DNA from: Escherichia phage vB_EcoM_PHB13
Sequence record: MK573636
Length of the DNA stretch: 64,000 nucleotides
Direction: 5' to 3' (one strand)
The stretch's first letter is position 1; every line of letters starts with the position of its first letter. Shown here in pieces: positions 2,079-19,495 of the stretch. The position numbers were made by a program, and so were the translations under genes. The notes beneath the pieces are model-generated. The model made no database searches and was not told the DNA's origin. It was given only the letters and a program-made list of their open reading frames with translations.

Positions 2079-3183
2079 CGGATCTGATACGTTCTATTAC
2101 AAAGATGAAATTACGGCGATGCAAACCCGTATGCGCATTTTTAGCTATCTGTACTTGAGCAAACCGGAAATGTGGAATAAACCAGATGCGTTAGAGTGTC
2201 GCGGGATCATGTTTGAAATTGACGATAAAGGTCGTCCGGTCCGCATCGCATCTCGTCCTATGGAGAAGTTTTTTAATTTGGGTGAGAATGATCGCGCTCG
2301 CTTTAAGCCGGAAGATGTGGAAATGGTCATGGACAAAATGGACGGTAGTCTAGTAAGCACATACATTGATAACGGCTATGTTCAGTTGAAGTCTAAAGCG
2401 GCCTTGTACTCAAGCCAGGCAGAGAGAGCAAACGGTCTTCTGTATTCAGAGAAGTATGCGGATCTACGAGCTAAGATCGCTGATATTGGGTCTGATTATA
2501 CTTTCAACTTTGAATATACAGCACCCAGCAACCGAATTGTTGTAGAATATTCTGAACCGTCGCTAACACTTCTGAATGTACGCCATAACGTCACAGGAGA
2601 ATACGTACCGCATCAAATGCTATTTGCTGACGCAATCCTACGTTCTCATCTGGTAAATGCGTTACAGGTTGATTCAGCGCGTTTTAGTAATATTCTTGAT
2701 GAAGTTCGGACCGCAGAAGGTATCGAAGGAATTGTTGCACGCACTAAAGACGGTCAAATGTTCAAGGTGAAGAGTGAATGGTATATTGGTGTGCATAACA
2801 TTAAAAACACATCGATGTTTCCTAATAACCTGATCTACTATGTCGTAGAAAGCGAAACCGATGATTTGCGTGCTGCATATGAAGGCGAACCGGAAGCACT
2901 GGAACGAATCGAGCTATTCGAGGAAGCATTCAGGTCTATTCTTCGCAATGCCTTCACGACAGCAACAGAATTTTATAACGCACACGCGGGAGAAGACAGA
3001 AAGACATATGCATCCAATGCGACTATCGAATCACGTAAACATGGTGACGCACAAGCATATATTTTCATGTGTCTGATGATTGCATTTGATGGTCTTGATT
3101 ATGACCGTATTCTGGCTTCAATGAAAACCTACTATCTACGGAATTATAAGAAACTGATTCCGGCTGATAAGATTGATTGGTAA
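2014..3183 (+). CDS. rnlA: RNA ligase 1
   Basis: N-terminal region (RIFSYLYLS..PDALECRGIMFEIDDKGRPVRIASRPMEKFFNL) resembles T4 gp63; KMDGSL nucleotidyltransferase lysine motif. The 5' end overlaps denA by 65 nt, so the true start may be downstream. Confidence 0.75.
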   Translation: MSTKENNKKVLALFKNLMALCDGSDTFYYKDEITAMQTRMRIFSYLYLSKPEMWNKPDALECRGIMFEIDDKGRPVRIASRPMEKFFNLGENDRARFKPEDVEMVMDKMDGSLVSTYIDNGYVQLKSKAALYSSQAERANGLLYSEKYADLRAKIADIGSDYTFNFEYTAPSNRIVVEYSEPSLTLLNVRHNVTGEYVPHQMLFADAILRSHLVNALQVDSARFSNILDEVRTAEGIEGIVARTKDGQMFKVKSEWYIGVHNIKNTSMFPNNLIYYVVESETDDLRAAYEGEPEALERIELFEEAFRSILRNAFTTATEFYNAHAGEDRKTYASNATIESRKHGDAQAYIFMCLMIAFDGLDYDRILASMKTYYLRNYKKLIPADKIDW

Positions 3184-5922: not shown

Positions 5923-6534
5923 ATGGAAACAAAAGATGATAATATCGTATTACCAGCGCCGGAAGAATGGAGACAAGCTGTAGGTTATCCGTGGTATGAA
6001 ATCTCTAATTATGGTAGATTGAGATCTATTGACCGAAGTATCGAATTTTATAGAGAAGTTTCTCCCGGTAATATTAAGCTCGTAAAACAAAAACGTGCTG
6101 GTAAAATAATAAAACCAATTTTAGACCGATATGGATATTATTATTCAACATTGTCAAAACAAAAAGACAATGGTAAAATCTCAGTTAAAGCCGAAAAGAT
6201 ACATCGACTTGTAGCAAATGCATTTCTAGGAGACGTTACCGGACTTGAGGTTAATCACATCAATGGTGTAAAAACCTGCAATTATGTGTGGAATCTAGAA
6301 ATAGTAACCTTACTAGAAAATATGAGACATTCATTTAGAACTGGACTCAATAACAATGTCGGTGAAAACCACTCACGGGCAAAACTGACAAATGCGCAAG
6401 TCGAAGAAATAATGCGGCTTAAAGGAAAAGTTAAGAAGCAAATTATAGCTGATATGTTTAATGTTTCTTATTGTTGTATAGCGCAAATACATTCCGGTCT
6501 GCGGAGAAATCCAAAGGTCGCGAAATATAAATAA
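5923..6534 (+). CDS. HNH homing endonuclease, free-standing
   Basis: N-terminal WYEISNYGRLRSIDR (NUMOD4-like) and EVNHINGVKTCNYVWNLEIVTLLENMRH (HNH_3-like); ORF track start at 5917 is TTG, ATG at 5923. Confidence 0.7.
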   Translation: METKDDNIVLPAPEEWRQAVGYPWYEISNYGRLRSIDRSIEFYREVSPGNIKLVKQKRAGKIIKPILDRYGYYYSTLSKQKDNGKISVKAEKIHRLVANAFLGDVTGLEVNHINGVKTCNYVWNLEIVTLLENMRHSFRTGLNNNVGENHSRAKLTNAQVEEIMRLKGKVKKQIIADMFNVSYCCIAQIHSGLRRNPKVAKYK

Positions 6535-14782: not shown

Positions 14783-14950
14783 ATGTTCGAGACTAAAGCA
14801 GCATGTGAAGCATATATCATTGAAACCCACGGCGAAGATTATCTGAAATTTGACATTGTAGTAGCACAGAAGATTGTAGGGATGGTTGCGAAATACCTCG
14901 GAGTTAAAGAAGGTTACTATCCAAGCAACGCACCGGAAATTAACAAATAA
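14783..14950 (+). CDS. small protein, 55 aa; near-identical paralog of 11525..11692; not in ORF track
   Basis: See 11525 feature; ATG after AGGAGAATCAAA. Confidence 0.5.
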   Translation: MFETKAACEAYIIETHGEDYLKFDIVVAQKIVGMVAKYLGVKEGYYPSNAPEINK

Positions 14951-14965
14951 TTTTTATAAAAAGTG

Positions 14966-14994
14966 TTGACAGGGGAGACACCCTCCCCTATAAT
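14966..14994 (+). promoter_or_regulatory. sigma70-like early promoter cassette
   Basis: TTGACA, spacer GGGGAGACACCCTCCCC, TATAAT. Confidence 0.6.
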
Positions 14995-15034
14995 ACAACC
15001 ATCAAGACGAGATACCACTTAGGAGAATCAAACA

Positions 15035-15286
15035 ATGGCTAACATCGAAACCGCAAAGAAAATCGCTAAAGACCTGAACGTTAAAGGCTTCCGTAAACTG
15101 AAATTACAGCGTGTACGCTACACCATCGGCAAACAGTGCTCTTTCATGAGCGAAGAAGTTGCTAACAGCCTCATTGATAACCTGATTGCGGCTGGCTGGG
15201 AAGTTGCGGATCTGAAAACTTGCCGCGAACTGGCTAACAAAGGTCTTTTAGATTCTGTTACTATAAAACCAATGGGGGCAGCGTGA
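15035..15286 (+). CDS. hypothetical protein, first gene of a five-gene operon
   Basis: 83 aa; first 16 nt (ATGGCTAACATCGAAA) identical to the start of the 17164 gene. Confidence 0.5.
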   Translation: MANIETAKKIAKDLNVKGFRKLKLQRVRYTIGKQCSFMSEEVANSLIDNLIAAGWEVADLKTCRELANKGLLDSVTIKPMGAA

Positions 15287-15528
15287 AAAGAAAATTAATT
15301 AAACGAAATAAGGAATTTTTGAATAACTGCATTAAGGTTGCTAATGGTTGGCCTTTGTTCCTCTTCCTTTATGATTGGTATTCTAAACAATCGGTAGAGG
15401 AAACACGACACTATAAGAAGATCAGAAAAGAATCATATACAAAACAAGGCCGCATTAACGGACTTTACTTAATGTGGCACGGCAAAGAACCTTCTAAAAT
15501 CTGTGTTGGATTAAAGGGGCGTATATGA
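15283..15528 (+). CDS. basic hypothetical protein
   Basis: 81 aa; apparent GTG start overlapping upstream stop; no internal ATG until residue 64, so start is uncertain. Confidence 0.35.
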   Translation: MKRKLIKRNKEFLNNCIKVANGWPLFLFLYDWYSKQSVEETRHYKKIRKESYTKQGRINGLYLMWHGKEPSKICVGLKGRI

Positions 15529-16241
15529 AACAAAAATTAATATTCTGCAACTTTGACGGATCGGGGATAATGGGGCTAGAATGGGCTAAAGCAGGTCATA
15601 AGGTGATCTGCTTTAATGCAGATGATGCCGACCACGGCACATACAAAAAGTATAATACCCGATTTGAACATCCAAACATTACATATGTAAACACATGGAT
15701 TGATTTGGATTGGCTGGAAAGAGCAATGGACCTTGAATGGGGAAAACCAGATATTATCTTTGCATTCCCACCGTGCACCAATTTAGCTGTTAGTGGCGCT
15801 GCACACTTTGAACGAAAGAAACGAGAACAAGGACCATTAATTCAAGTTCATGATGTAAGGGCAGCTAAAATAACCGCTTATTTGGGCGAATGGTTAGAAG
15901 TTCCCTACATGATAGAGAATCCTGTAAGCGTTATCTCTAGCATGTGGCGTAAGCCTGATTACATGTTCCACCCGTGGGAATATGGCGGTTATTTGCCGGA
16001 ATATGATATACATCCTACGTTTCCTGAGTATATTGCCTCCCGTGATATGTACCCGAAAAAGACTTGCTTATGGACGGGACAAGGTTTTATAATGCCAGAA
16101 AAGAAACCTATACCGATTAATAAAGGGTACAGTAAACAGCATTCTAAGCTAGGCGGGAAAGGAACCAGAACAAAGACTATCAGGTCACTTACCCCGCGAG
16201 GATTCGCAAAGGCAGTATTTGAAGCCAATAAGGATCTATGA
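15525..16241 (+). CDS. cytosine-C5 methyltransferase-like protein (mini Dcm fold)
   Basis: Motif I-like LIFCNFDGSG, motif IV-like FAFPPCTNLAVSGAA (Pro-Cys), motif VI-like MIENPVS, C-terminal RSLTPRGFAKAV; only 238 aa with no room for a target-recognition domain. Confidence 0.45.
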   Translation: MKQKLIFCNFDGSGIMGLEWAKAGHKVICFNADDADHGTYKKYNTRFEHPNITYVNTWIDLDWLERAMDLEWGKPDIIFAFPPCTNLAVSGAAHFERKKREQGPLIQVHDVRAAKITAYLGEWLEVPYMIENPVSVISSMWRKPDYMFHPWEYGGYLPEYDIHPTFPEYIASRDMYPKKTCLWTGQGFIMPEKKPIPINKGYSKQHSKLGGKGTRTKTIRSLTPRGFAKAVFEANKDL

Positions 16242-16570
16242 TGGGATTGTTTAAGTATTCGCTAACGTCAAATTACGATAAACAAGGTCATTGCATCAGT
16301 TGCCCTGATTGTCGTAGCCATAACATCGAAAGCAAGATCACCGATCATATTGATGGACTTTGGTCGCCAGCAAGCGAGATAGAATACTATTGCGCTGATT
16401 GTGGAATTGTAGTAGCATATTGGGCATACGGATCATATGATCCTTACTTCCAGATGGGAGAGCGTTCAATCCCTGCTCTTATCTGGAGAATTAAGAACAA
16501 TATCCGCCATTCATGGGATGAGTTCTTAAAAGATATTGATTTACGTGATGATCCATTCAGGAGACTATAA
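16238..16570 (+). CDS. zinc-ribbon protein
   Basis: CISCPDC ... CADCG (two CxxC pairs); start overlaps upstream stop. Confidence 0.4.
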   Translation: MMGLFKYSLTSNYDKQGHCISCPDCRSHNIESKITDHIDGLWSPASEIEYYCADCGIVVAYWAYGSYDPYFQMGERSIPALIWRIKNNIRHSWDEFLKDIDLRDDPFRRL

Positions 16571-16571
16571 C

Positions 16572-17090
16572 ATGAACCGTTTGACGCCTAAACGCCGTTA
16601 CTATACCAATACTAAAAACTTTGTCATCTCTGTTTATGAGGCGTGGTTAGAAGATGGCTATATCAACATGAACCCAGATTACCAGCGTCCTTTGGTATGG
16701 GACACCGAAAACAAACGTATGTTTATCGAAAACCTGATTAATGATTTTCCGGTTGGTGCTATCGCAATGGCTAAGATTGATGATGGCTCTCGCTATGAGA
16801 TCGAAATCGTGGACGGTAAACAGCGTTTAAACGCAATATTCTCCTTTATGAAAGATGAGTTTAGCATTGCTGGTAATGATGATTCTATGTTGTATTACAG
16901 TGATTTTACGCCAGCAGAAAAGCGACGTTTTCGCAATCTCGGACTACCCGCGATCATGATGGAAGAGAGCACACGAGAAGATCGATTAGAATATTTCTAC
17001 AAAACAAACTTTTTCGGTGTGCCTCAATCAGAAGATCATCGCCAGCATGTGATTGCATTATTGCAAGATGAGCAATTAAAAAATAACTAA
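16572..17090 (+). CDS. DUF262 / ParB-like nuclease-superfamily domain protein
   Basis: NPDYQRPLVWD ... EIVDGKQRLNAI (YQR-W and DGxQR motifs); ORF track start 16536 trimmed to ATG 16572 with AGGAG site. Confidence 0.6.
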   Translation: MNRLTPKRRYYTNTKNFVISVYEAWLEDGYINMNPDYQRPLVWDTENKRMFIENLINDFPVGAIAMAKIDDGSRYEIEIVDGKQRLNAIFSFMKDEFSIAGNDDSMLYYSDFTPAEKRRFRNLGLPAIMMEESTREDRLEYFYKTNFFGVPQSEDHRQHVIALLQDEQLKNN

Positions 17091-17097
17091 AAAGTTG

Positions 17098-17127
17098 TTG
17101 ACAGGGGGATCGGTGATCCCCTATAAT
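17098..17127 (+). promoter_or_regulatory. sigma70-like early promoter cassette
   Basis: TTGACA, 18-bp spacer GGGGGATCGGTGATCCCC, TATAAT. Confidence 0.6.
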
Positions 17128-17163
17128 GCAAACATACCGAAACGAACTACTAAGGAGTATCAA

Positions 17164-17376
17164 ATGGCTAACATCGAAATCATCATTACCGACGTAACTT
17201 ATGACCGCATTAACGAAATCGGTACTGCTTTGCTAGAAGATGGAACAACTCGCACCATCAACTACGCAGAATACGTTGAAATGCGCGGTTGTATTAAACG
17301 AGTAGGAAAATATATCCTGATTGAAAAAGACTATTCAGGATACACATTAGAGCAATTGCTCGATGGTGCATTATAA
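17164..17376 (+). CDS. hypothetical protein
   Basis: 70 aa; ORF track start 17095 lies in the promoter; ATG at 17164 after AAGGAG. Confidence 0.5.
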   Translation: MANIEIIITDVTYDRINEIGTALLEDGTTRTINYAEYVEMRGCIKRVGKYILIEKDYSGYTLEQLLDGAL

Positions 17377-17443: not shown

Positions 17444-19495
17444 ATGTTTAACTTAGAAATCGACGATCTAATGATTGAATCTTTCGAGAAATGGCTGTTG
17501 ACGGAAGAGGAAGAAAACTTTGGCAGTATTGCTCCGGTACAGTGCTTAAAGCCTAAGCAGAATCCTAAACAGCTTTTTGCAGTACAGACACGCGATAAAG
17601 ATGTGATTGTCCGTCTTTGTAACTTCACCAACAAAACACCTAAAATCATTCGTATGGGTGACAAGACCGCACATGTTGTACTGTGCGAAATGAACAAAAG
17701 CGGTCGTATTGTACAGCTTAAAAATGGTCTAGGCGATAACCCGATTGCAGTTATGGCAAGTGCTTTTGATGTGGTTATGGAAACAGCCCGTAAAGCGCAA
17801 TTAGACGCTGTTATGTTCCGTTTTAACGTATCCCGCATGAAAGGTAAGACCGAACTGGTTAAGCGCGTTATAGAGCGTTTGGTGCGTCGTACACCGAAGT
17901 TTGAAGTATTCCAGCAGGAAGTAATGACCAGCAAAAAGATCGCTTTAGTTGTTGTCAAGCGTCGAGGTATGGCGATTGATAAGATTAAAGGGATTAAACT
18001 TGATGAATCCTTGTTCACTAAAGTAGAAAGTGATTTAGGTGATCGCTGGGTATCTAAAGCTACTGGCGAATCTCTGACTAAAGATGAAGCATATGCGGCT
18101 AGTCTTGTGTCAGAAGAAGAACGAAACGCGGAAGCAGAACAACGCGTAGCGGCTAAATCTCGTTTGACTAAAGAAGAAATGCTGAAAACTCAAGCGACCT
18201 ATAACAGCGACTATGTGAATCATCCAGAAAAAATTAATCTTAAACCGGAAGAAGATATCACCGAAGCAGAACCTAAGAAACAGTTTAATACTCTGATTGA
18301 CCGTCAAGCCTTAGAACGTTCAACCGCCCGTTCTCTGAATGACTGGACAAGTGATATTATCACTCGCTATGGTTTCATGCGTACTATTTTTGAAAGCGAA
18401 GCCGATGCAAAATACGCAGTAAGCGAACTGGTAAAAGTTCAGGACCAATATGATCCGTTGTCTGCGGAAGTTATCGCAGCATCAATCAAACGCTTAAAAG
18501 AAATCATGAGCGAGGAAGTATTCGAAAACAAGATCACTGCGTTGGCAATGGATCGAGTAGACCAGTCTATGCCAGCAGATGTAAAAGCTGAAATGCTGCG
18601 TAGTCATATCACACAGATTAAAACCGATGCCCTTCGTAATGTTGCCTCCGGTATGTTTGAAGCAATTGCAAGTAACATGGGTGAAATGATGGCAGATATT
18701 GATCTTGACCTACCAGGCGCGGAAGGTTTTGTGTTGAGCGAATATGCGGATGCAGCATACATCAATATGAACAACTTCCTAACCGATCGTAAGCTGGATG
18801 AGTTCGAAGGGATCGCTGACCCAGAAGAATTGGTCAAGATGTGCGACGCACTGGATAATGCCTTCGCTAACTATGGCGTTAAACTTGATCCGGGTACTAT
18901 TCTGTATCGTGGTATGGACTTCCGGTCTCAAATGTGGGAAACTGCACGTAAGCAAAAAGCGTTTTACTTTAAAAACTATGTGAGCACTTCCCTTGCACCT
19001 AACATTTTTGGCGGCTGGAATGCAAACGTGGCTAGTGCCGTTGCTGGTGTTGATTCTATGGCTGGCTCTCGCGGTGAAGGTGGCGCGAATGTTGCTTTCT
19101 CCATTGCTGGCGCGGAAAACATCCCTGTATTGCCAGTAGGTAACAAAGCATTTGCTTACAAAGAATGCGAGATTTTACTTCCTCGCGGTGTTGTGTTATC
19201 CTTTGATACGGTAACTCGTGCTACGGCATCGACGGATTCACAAGAAACATATTACATTGAGGCACATATTATGAACAAAAGTGAACTGGCAGCATTACAA
19301 GAATCTGGCGAAATGATCGCGGATGGTGATGCATTCATCCGTGAAGGTGTTGTTAAACCTGCTTCTGACCTGTCTTTCTCCAGATTCATTACAGAAGCTA
19401 AAACCGAACGTAAGAAAGCAGATAAGGCAACTCTACGTCAGCTTATCGCTGATCTGGTGTCTGTAGACGCAATGCCAGATAAATTTAAAATGTAA
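17444..19495 (+). CDS. alt: ADP-ribosyltransferase Alt
   Basis: 683 aa (T4 Alt is about 682); C-terminal ART triad LYRGM / YVSTSL / ECEILLPRG; position between gene 30 region and gene 54 as in T4. Confidence 0.75.
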   Translation: MFNLEIDDLMIESFEKWLLTEEEENFGSIAPVQCLKPKQNPKQLFAVQTRDKDVIVRLCNFTNKTPKIIRMGDKTAHVVLCEMNKSGRIVQLKNGLGDNPIAVMASAFDVVMETARKAQLDAVMFRFNVSRMKGKTELVKRVIERLVRRTPKFEVFQQEVMTSKKIALVVVKRRGMAIDKIKGIKLDESLFTKVESDLGDRWVSKATGESLTKDEAYAASLVSEEERNAEAEQRVAAKSRLTKEEMLKTQATYNSDYVNHPEKINLKPEEDITEAEPKKQFNTLIDRQALERSTARSLNDWTSDIITRYGFMRTIFESEADAKYAVSELVKVQDQYDPLSAEVIAASIKRLKEIMSEEVFENKITALAMDRVDQSMPADVKAEMLRSHITQIKTDALRNVASGMFEAIASNMGEMMADIDLDLPGAEGFVLSEYADAAYINMNNFLTDRKLDEFEGIADPEELVKMCDALDNAFANYGVKLDPGTILYRGMDFRSQMWETARKQKAFYFKNYVSTSLAPNIFGGWNANVASAVAGVDSMAGSRGEGGANVAFSIAGAENIPVLPVGNKAFAYKECEILLPRGVVLSFDTVTRATASTDSQETYYIEAHIMNKSELAALQESGEMIADGDAFIREGVVKPASDLSFSRFITEAKTERKKADKATLRQLIADLVSVDAMPDKFKM

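Follow-up and report, generated by a model that had tools for sequence, protein, structure and literature searches.

Introduction

Split cytosine-C5 DNA methyltransferases such as M.AquI and M.EcoHK31I have their function spread across two polypeptides, the second of which carries motifs IX-X or completes the fold. A large annotated family of small C5 methyltransferases, which are self-sufficient, is also already known. One of these, the Dcm-like methyltransferase of K42/KarlJaspers (Bas06), is the trigger of retron Ec86, and the K42 enzyme expressed alone from pBAD in E. coli raised 5mC on Ec86 msDNA as measured by LC–MS, while this rise was lost in a C82A/E128A/K175A/K176A quadruple mutant (bioRxiv 10.1101/2023.08.16.553469). 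CCWGG as the specificity of the K42 enzyme is an assumption of the same paper (bioRxiv 10.1101/2023.08.16.553469).

Here we describe a five-gene operon within a 64,000-nucleotide stretch of Escherichia phage vB_EcoM_PHB13 (record MK573636; hereafter the window), which encodes a member of this family alongside a zinc-ribbon protein and a stand-alone DUF262 protein. The first-pass annotation had proposed that these represent a split module in which specificity is supplied in trans. Our analysis instead indicates that the operon most probably combines an autonomous, minimal C5 methyltransferase with independent accessory genes.

Five genes form a single early transcription unit

The window derives from a Krischvirus with 97% identity to RB49, and the region of interest contains five tightly packed plus-strand open reading frames situated between two perfect sigma-70 "PeSL" cassettes (Table 1). 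PeSL elements are a class known from RB49 and phi1, where these cassettes function as early promoters and shuffling sites and are repeated in hyperplastic regions (PMC2839356). Five plus-strand copies occur in the window, two of which bracket the operon. Both flanking promoters score 12/12 against the sigma-70 consensus and feature a G/C stem-loop between the hexamers, and the interval that separates them contains no promoter of comparable strength. The five genes are one early transcription unit, situated in a PeSL-flanked hyperplastic part of an RB49-like genome, and this unit would combine five accessory genes that are independently distributed.

Five genes with overlapping stops and starts had been proposed to follow one cassette promoter. 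The single promoter stands, as do three 4-nt overlaps (GTGA, ATGA and ATGA), but the fourth junction (16570/16572) is separated, with TAA, one base and ATG, and GGAG located 8 nt upstream. Each of the five open reading frames matches a PHROG family strongly (E 1e-32 to 1e-90), which places the features of the operon far beyond chance. The same five-gene order is found in 56/56 Krischvirus-like records, and every gene of the operon is under purifying selection. The product of gene 1 is 100% identical to its RB49 counterpart at the amino-acid level and has a weak PADLOC match (E 2.6e-5) to the C-terminal part of RT_UG35. Gene 1 and the gene beyond the next cassette share the same first five codons (MANIE).

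Table 1. Features of the operon and its flanking cassettes (window coordinates).
Feature	Position	Strand	Description	Homolog or family match
PeSL early-promoter cassette, upstream	14943–15034	+	Aligns with four other window cassettes; G/C stem-loop GGGGAGACACCCTCCCC between the hexamers	
Promoter of upstream cassette	14966–14994		−35 TTGACA (14966–14971); −10 TATAAT (14989–14994)	
Shine-Dalgarno of upstream cassette	15021–15025		AGGAG	
Gene 1	15035–15286	+	83 aa	RB49p190; phrog_14908, E 5e-59
Gene 2	15283–15528	+	81 aa, GTG start	RB49p189.1 (annotated in RB49); phrog_7065, E 7e-38
Predicted compact orphan DNA cytosine-C5 methyltransferase	15525–16241	+	238 aa	RB49p189; phrog_757, E 1.6e-90 (residues 1–237)
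Zinc-ribbon protein	16238–16570	+	110 aa	RB49p188; phrog_2993, E 2e-32
DUF262 (ParB/Srx-fold, GmrSD_N) protein	16572–17090	+	172 aa	RB49p187
Next PeSL cassette	17075–17164	+	Promoter 17098–17127; transcription unit ends here	

The 238-aa product is a predicted DNA cytosine-C5 methyltransferase

The C5-methyltransferase motifs originally reported for the 238-aa product (motif I, the Pro-Cys of motif IV and an ENV-like motif) are all present. Motif I (F10-D-G-S-G14) matches the family consensus FDGSG, and G12, S13 and G14 are each shared by at least 90% of close homologs. The motif IV nucleophile lies in P82-P83-C84, where C84 is invariant across 43 close and 33 distant homologs, and motif VI is E131-N132-P133, an ENP variant of the ENV type that is invariant in homologs. 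K178 and K179 are conserved, a motif IX-like stretch (R220SLTPRG226) is found near the C-terminus, and C84, ENP and K178 are unchanged among relatives with identities of 31–55%. An alternative GeneMark start at Met16, given in the RB49 record, was rejected because it would remove motif I, which is conserved family-wide.

Profile searches upheld the methyltransferase reading through PF00145 matches that were recurrent, though weak. The window protein scores 14.0 bits against a gathering cutoff of 22 (E 0.034, residues 10–100 only), while 19 of 43 homologs match at E ≤ 0.1 (best 1.3e-6), and this is the sole recurrent Pfam match. NCBIfam contained no matching model for either the methyltransferase or the DUF262 protein. 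PDB sequence searches with the 238-aa protein and with the family profile yielded no useful relative, so the link to known C5 methyltransferase structures was made by fold comparison alone. This comparison indicated a class I methyltransferase fold that is nearest to known C5 DNA methyltransferases, with enzymes that act on DNA rather than RNA as the top structural matches. In comparison with the catalytic domains of DNMT3A and DNMT3B and the classical bacterial enzymes M.HhaI and M.HaeIII (PF00145), the window protein is 50–90 residues shorter, features ENP in place of ENV and has short variable loops only, in place of a large target-recognition domain. Its sequence similarity to these enzymes is too low to reach the Pfam threshold or to give any PDB sequence match.

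The wider family comprises 7,183 homologs, essentially all of which are 225–250 aa among those listed, and is found in 1,519 phage records, where it is commonly labelled Dcm-like; RB49 p189 itself is annotated as a 'DNA methyltransferase'. The KarlJaspers protein (bas06_0055, 236 aa) is 55% identical to the window protein from end to end (BLASTP E 5e-89), and its C82, E128, K175 and K176 align with C84, E131, K178 and K179, respectively. Both are orphan genes without a cognate nuclease. KarlJaspers differs in being a Drexlerviridae siphovirus in which the methyltransferase gene has unrelated neighbours, with zinc-ribbon and DUF262 genes absent nearby. The motifs, the weak but recurrent PF00145 matches, the fold and the published active homolog together support the assignment of the 238-aa product as a C5-methyltransferase-type enzyme.

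We propose that this protein functions as an autonomous, minimal, DNMT3-like DNA cytosine-C5 methyltransferase. In this model, the FDGSG Rossmann site would accommodate S-adenosylmethionine (SAM), and a flipped-out cytosine would be attacked at C6 by Cys84 from the PPC motif and protonated at N3 by Glu131 from the ENP motif.

Target recognition and the CCWGG motif

The first-pass annotation considered 238 aa too short to accommodate target recognition. This view is not supported, as the whole family has the same length and the K42 homolog is active alone. A large domain is missing between motifs VIII and IX; there are instead two variable loops (residues ∼157–172 and 192–216), which flank an invariant K178-x-T180..W183 element and precede the R220SLTPRG segment. 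The position of these loops is the one expected for a small built-in recognition element, and they are candidates for such a role. If the target is read by these two short loops together with the KLGGK...TK.IRSLTPRG segment, a separate recognition subunit would be unnecessary. The window enzyme also differs from M.AquI and M.EcoHK31I in that motifs I, IV and VI and the motif IX-like C-terminus are all in one chain. Its operon neighbours feature no methyltransferase motifs, and their matches are limited to zinc-ribbon and GmrSD_N models.

The KarlJaspers genome does not avoid CCWGG (observed/expected 1.03), nor do the pooled loci of other carriers (1.00), whereas the motif is strongly depleted in the window (0.28, about 22 sites per 64 kb). 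This depletion would be odd if the enzyme protects CCWGG there.

An alternative is that the Krischvirus copy does not work as a 5mC methyltransferase during infection, due to a drifted specificity, another substrate such as RNA or single-stranded DNA or a non-catalytic role, such that phage DNA is effectively unmodified. In phage TB34, a close relative, HPLC-MS detected no modified nucleosides, and HpaII and NheI cut RB49 DNA, which excludes CCGG or general methylation. The TB34 result is not decisive, since site-specific 5mC at only ∼22 CCWGG sites per 64 kb could go unnoticed; rare site-specific 5mC would escape both bulk HPLC and the two enzymes tested. The window protein does feature Asn86 where over 90% of close relatives have Asp (D86N), but this position is variable among distant family members and all invariant catalytic residues are kept. 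In addition, a dN/dS of 0.09–0.15 for the methyltransferase argues for maintained function, while the proximity to DNA rather than RNA enzymes in the structural comparison argues against an RNA substrate. We therefore regard a non-working copy as improbable. A working, autonomous enzyme would probably serve as an orphan methyltransferase that protects phage DNA from type II restriction. In relatives, retron Ec86 senses this activity, which is a known side effect.

The zinc-ribbon and DUF262 proteins

The CxxC...CxxC zinc ribbon reported previously is present in the 110-aa protein, where it takes the form CxxCxxC...CxxC (C19-x2-C22-x2-C25 and C52-x2-C55) and precedes a conserved (Y/F)WAYGx(Y/F)(D/E/Q)P motif. 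All Pfam zinc-ribbon matches are sub-threshold. Matches to the TFIIB zinc ribbon (E 0.0045), to ECs_2282 (E 0.018) and to Lar restriction-alleviation (E 0.66) fall far below cutoffs, and no function was assigned on this basis. A PDB sequence search with this protein returned noise only. Homologs are encoded in Nonagvirus, Felixounavirus and SSBI34, where methyltransferase and DUF262 neighbours are absent.

The DUF262 assignment was confirmed for the 172-aa protein, which contains the expected YQR-x3-W and DGKQR motifs (Y37QR within YQRPLVW and D81GKQR85) as well as N146FxGVPQS, and matches Pfam GmrSD_N well above threshold (73 bits versus a cutoff of 33, E 4e-20). It stops straight after the DUF262 core and the next element is the promoter cassette. 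The nuclease partner is missing, as had been reported: no nuclease family (DUF1524/HNH included), fused or adjacent, was matched by any of the five operon proteins. The protein resembles BrxU, Eco94GmrSD and SspE in its DUF262 NTPase-type domain with QR/DGxQR/NxxG motifs, and is structurally near BrxU and SspE, but it is phage-encoded and wholly lacks the DUF1524/HNH half. A word-indexed homolog search identified only two proteins, so a phage-homolog profile was needed, and this placed the window protein in a separate clade of stand-alone proteins of about 170 aa. Such proteins are widespread among phages and prophages. Matches to sliding clamps in a PDB sequence search were spurious. The DUF262 protein may bind NTPs and associate with DNA, and it could function in anti-defence.

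Do the neighbouring genes serve the methyltransferase?

Searches by tblastn and HMM found no zinc-ribbon or DUF262 relatives within 4 kb of the methyltransferase at 79 non-Krischvirus loci (0/79). Conversely, where other phages and prophages encode short DUF262 or zinc-ribbon homologs, this methyltransferase is absent from the locus. Among ten longer methyltransferase relatives there were no Rosetta-stone fusions to a zinc ribbon or DUF262; the fusions seen were one HNH_2 and one winged-helix-like tail. Two apparent linkages were rejected on inspection. A 'putative DNA methyltransferase' of Klebsiella phage DP, encoded 1 kb upstream of a short DUF262 gene, is an unrelated NPPY-type (N6A/N4C) enzyme, and a 234–246-aa open reading frame beside short DUF262 genes in plasmid-like contigs is not homologous to the methyltransferase.

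The proposal of a split module with specificity in trans is therefore unsupported: a 55%-identical homolog forms 5mC when expressed alone, none of the 79 loci is linked, and the neighbours are found independently. The zinc-ribbon and DUF262 genes are quite likely to be unrelated accessory genes and not missing parts of the enzyme. They would have separate functions, connected to the methyltransferase by nothing more than a common promoter and translational coupling.

A weaker form of partnership would be a Krischvirus-specific module, in which the methyltransferase is able to act alone but the DUF262/ParB-fold protein and/or the zinc ribbon activate, time or target methylation. The single promoter, the stop/start overlaps and the gene order shared by all 56 Krischvirus-like records are in keeping with this, as is purifying selection on all three genes. 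In BrxU and SspE, the structural neighbours of the 172-aa protein, the DUF262 domain acts as an NTP-dependent regulator. There is also a precedent for a ParB-fold activator in the 5mYOX-ParB thymine dioxygenases, where a phage post-replicative DNA-modifying enzyme that is encoded beside a small ParB-fold protein without an obvious DNA-binding domain needs this partner on double-stranded DNA (PMC13229309). However, those pairs co-localise across many phages, their dependence was shown experimentally and the partner belongs to PF02195 (PMC13229309), while the Krischvirus partner is a DUF262 protein and the pairing is confined to one genus. The module is further opposed by the lack of co-occurrence outside the genus, by the existence of both partner families without this methyltransferase, by the lack of fusions and by the K42 homolog that is active alone. 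Moreover, small early genes of T4-like hyperplastic regions are usually translationally coupled even when unrelated (PMC2839356). We consider such a module unlikely. Some functional link would fit the tight coupling and the gene order that is strictly conserved in the genus.

The Krischvirus isolate SAP was reported to contain 5hmC and glucosyl-5hmC, in contrast to plain cytosine in its 99.96%-identical sibling TB34. The operon was rejected as a simple cause of this difference because its coding sequence is identical in SAP and TB34. The nearest difference between them lies directly after the DUF262 stop codon, where SAP has the promoter cassette duplicated in tandem (79 bp). It is conceivable, but very unlikely, that the methyltransferase, zinc ribbon and DUF262 protein form a regulated or targeted Krischvirus unit with a ParB-fold activator that could even feed the 5hmC pathway of SAP.

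Biological significance

An autonomous enzyme accompanied by independent accessory genes removes the tempting reading of an incomplete methyltransferase that needs partners. The Krischvirus protein belongs to the known family of small, self-sufficient C5 methyltransferases. At ∼230 aa, this class of working C5 DNA methyltransferases may be the smallest, and it is extremely common in enterobacterial phages. These mini-methyltransferases would be able to blunt restriction systems, while being sensed by retron Ec86, and their minimal recognition loops may provide an attractive model for the least protein needed to read a DNA motif.

Operon layout and promoter cassettes

Sigma-70 promoters with 12/12 consensus matches and a G/C stem-loop between the hexamers flank five ORFs, and no comparable promoter lies between them (see the table below). 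These promoters are PeSL cassettes, a type known from the hyperplastic regions of RB49 and phi1, where it is described as an early promoter and a recombination site (PMC2839356). The first-pass annotation described overlapping stops and starts; all of the motifs that it quoted were found, but overlaps, of 4 nt each, occur at just three of the junctions (GTGA, ATGA and ATGA), while the fourth consists of TAA, one base and ATG, with GGAG upstream. The flanking cassettes have in common a promoter, stem-loop, RBS and the first five codons of the gene that follows (ATGGCTAACATCGAA, MANIE), so the mobile cassette apparently continues into the coding region of that gene. The gene after the downstream cassette differs from its RB49 and TB34 equivalent (6125-6304 and 2426-2605 of the respective loci), which encodes a 59-aa product beginning MKHLTIES. 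This resembles a gene replacement mediated by a PeSL cassette.

Features of the operon region and its flanks, in window coordinates
Feature	Coordinates	Product or character	RB49 counterpart
Upstream PeSL promoter	14966-14994	sigma-70, stem-loop	
Five codons common to both cassettes	15035-15049; 17165-17179	MANIE	
Gene 1	15035-15286	83 aa	RB49p190
Gene 2	15283-15528		p189.1
Methyltransferase	15525-16241	238 aa	p189, 'DNA methyltransferase'
Zinc ribbon	16238-16570	110 aa	p188
DUF262 protein	16572-17090	172 aa	p187
Region corresponding to SAP duplication	~17078-17160		
Downstream PeSL promoter	17098-17127	sigma-70, stem-loop	
Gene after downstream cassette	17165-17376	70 aa from Met at 17165, MANIEIIITD...	
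Alt-like RNA polymerase ADP-ribosyltransferase	17444-19495	683 aa, just downstream of the operon	same in RB49

Conservation within Krischvirus

Over the 2,056-bp operon region, identity to RB49 and to 55 further Krischvirus-like records is 96.5-97.2%. A search with 24 kb of core sequence from the window likewise gave 56 near-full-length relatives, and the operon is therefore present in every related genome in the collection. In phages kaaroe and FL04 the operon match falls into two pieces with a span ~177 bp longer than the query, which points to a small insertion within it. Within the genus, the last three genes are under purifying selection, with dN/dS values of 0.09-0.15 (methyltransferase), 0.18-0.31 (zinc ribbon) and 0.02-0.05 (DUF262); that the Krischvirus methyltransferase copy is inactive or has been re-purposed is considered improbable.

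Genes 1 and 2 belong to PHROG families without assigned function. Residues 12-75 of the gene 1 product match positions 722-785 of the PADLOC model RT_UG35 (E 2.6e-5), a defence-associated reverse transcriptase, and the two proteins may have a small domain in common.

Assignment of the methyltransferase

Taken singly, the 238-aa protein scored 14 bits against PF00145 (threshold 22; residues 10-100 covered) in Pfam, matched no NCBIfam model and, used as a single sequence or as a family profile, found no matches in PDB sequence searches. As a family, it matches phrog_757 ('DNA methyltransferase', E 1.6e-90), has 7,183 homologs in a large protein collection, nearly all of 225-250 aa among the matches listed, and matches 1,519 phage records, often annotated as Dcm-like, with carriers including Drexlerviridae, Dhillonvirus-like siphoviruses, Vequintavirinae and Klebsiella Webervirus. 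PF00145 was the sole recurring Pfam family among 43 close homologs (19 matches, best E 1.3e-6). Judged from sequence, the single-protein evidence for methyltransferase identity is thin and the family evidence strong. In an alignment extending to 31% identity, C84, G91, K99, E131-N132-P133, P150, Y176, K178, T180, W183, P191 and G226 are invariant, and segments ~157-172 and ~192-216, variable in both length and sequence, may constitute a small built-in recognition element.

A homolog has been studied experimentally in work on retron Ec86 with phage K42, which shares 95% identity with KarlJaspers (Bas06); every mutation in the K42 escape mutants disrupted a 711-bp 'Dcm' gene (bioRxiv 10.1101/2023.08.16.553469). 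Expressed alone from pBAD, K42 Dcm showed toxicity that depended on the retron, and it increased msDNA 5mC as measured by LC-MS, an increase not seen with C82A/E128A/K175A/K176A; its CCWGG specificity was carried over from E. coli Dcm rather than mapped, the sole support being mutation of both cytosines in the msDNA site (bioRxiv 10.1101/2023.08.16.553469). The KarlJaspers gene bas06_0055 is exactly 711 bp, and its product shares 55% identity with the window methyltransferase over the full length (E 5e-89), with C82, E128, K175 and K176 aligning with C84, E131, K178 and K179. Formation of 5mC by a member of the family, K42 Dcm, therefore needs no partner.

Site avoidance and DNA modification

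The whole window shows strong restriction-site avoidance. CCWGG is strongly depleted (22 sites in 64 kb, observed/expected 0.28), as are GGCC (0.37) and CCSGG (0.46), and many 6-bp palindromes are absent, including GAATTC (36 expected) and AAGCTT (25 expected); GATC (1.08) and CCGG (0.94) are not avoided. In contrast, CCWGG stands at 1.03 in KarlJaspers, which carries the tested Dcm (CCSGG 0.17), and at 1.00 in the pooled loci of other carriers (644 kb), where 6-mer palindromes overall reach 0.69. Accordingly, the site protected by the Krischvirus enzyme may be a different one, its protection may be weak, or the CCWGG depletion may predate the gene.

Bulk HPLC-MS of TB34 detected no modified nucleosides, and both HpaII and NheI cut RB49 DNA. 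These results leave room for rare site-specific 5mC, whereas methylation of CCGG or general methylation would not fit them. Krischvirus SAP is reported to contain 5hmC and glucosyl-5hmC by an unexplained route and TB34 DNA to be unmodified, yet their operons are identical. The nearest difference between them lies directly after the DUF262 stop codon, where SAP has the PeSL cassette duplicated in tandem, a gain of 79 bp (2344-2425 of its locus).

Distribution of the neighbouring genes

The 110-aa protein, in which a zinc ribbon of four to five cysteines precedes a conserved (Y/F)WAYGx(Y/F)(D/E/Q)P motif, matched no family above threshold. Relatives of it and of the DUF262 protein were sought by tblastn and with HMMs built from each family within 4 kb on each side of the methyltransferase homolog in 80 viral loci. 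They occurred in one, the single Krischvirus locus, and also in the RB49 locus, which was examined separately; neither was detected in the remaining 79, and ten longer methyltransferase relatives showed no fusion to either. The reverse search agreed. Neither partner lies close to the zinc-ribbon homologs of Nonagvirus JenK1, Felixounavirus VpaE1 and Salmonella phage SSBI34, and stand-alone DUF262 homologs in RB16 and Klebsiella phages Miro and DP (35-38% identity, 170-177 aa) have different neighbours. In bacteria, the stand-alone DUF262 gene lies between recT and xis/int of lambdoid prophages or on ~85-kb plasmid-like contigs, and this methyltransferase was not found beside it. Given the agreement of both tests, the three genes are independently distributed and combined only in Krischvirus.

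The DP locus (a Mydovirus) is a second case of a methyltransferase near a stand-alone DUF262 gene (803-1486 and 2480-3013, 1 kb apart, methyltransferase upstream); the enzyme is of a different, NPPY-type class and was rejected as a family member. These bacterial DUF262 proteins are of 171 aa; in the prophages, which are from Salmonella, they are encoded in the early-left accessory region (5001-5516 in L093-L096), and the contigs are Citrobacter phage-plasmid-like elements (L097-L100), one of which (L098) has a Lar_restr_allev-domain gene ~4 kb downstream. The DUF262 protein may have an NTP-binding, DNA-associated or anti-defence role.

Cooperation of the methyltransferase with its operon neighbours specifically in Krischvirus would fit the strictly conserved gene order, and ParB-fold proteins were recently shown to act as activators of certain phage thymine dioxygenases (PMC13229309), but the genes did not co-occur in the loci examined outside the genus and the homolog is autonomous, so we regard such cooperation as unlikely. 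The first-pass annotation was right to place the protein among C5 methyltransferases; its proposal of a split enzyme, too short for target recognition and given specificity in trans by its neighbours, finds no support in the 79 non-Krischvirus loci with neither neighbour or in the K42 homolog, which makes 5mC alone. The methyltransferase adds a member to a family of minimal orphan C5 methyltransferases that is already known and partly characterised, and the operon is a mosaic of accessory genes, specific to the genus, rather than a split enzyme.
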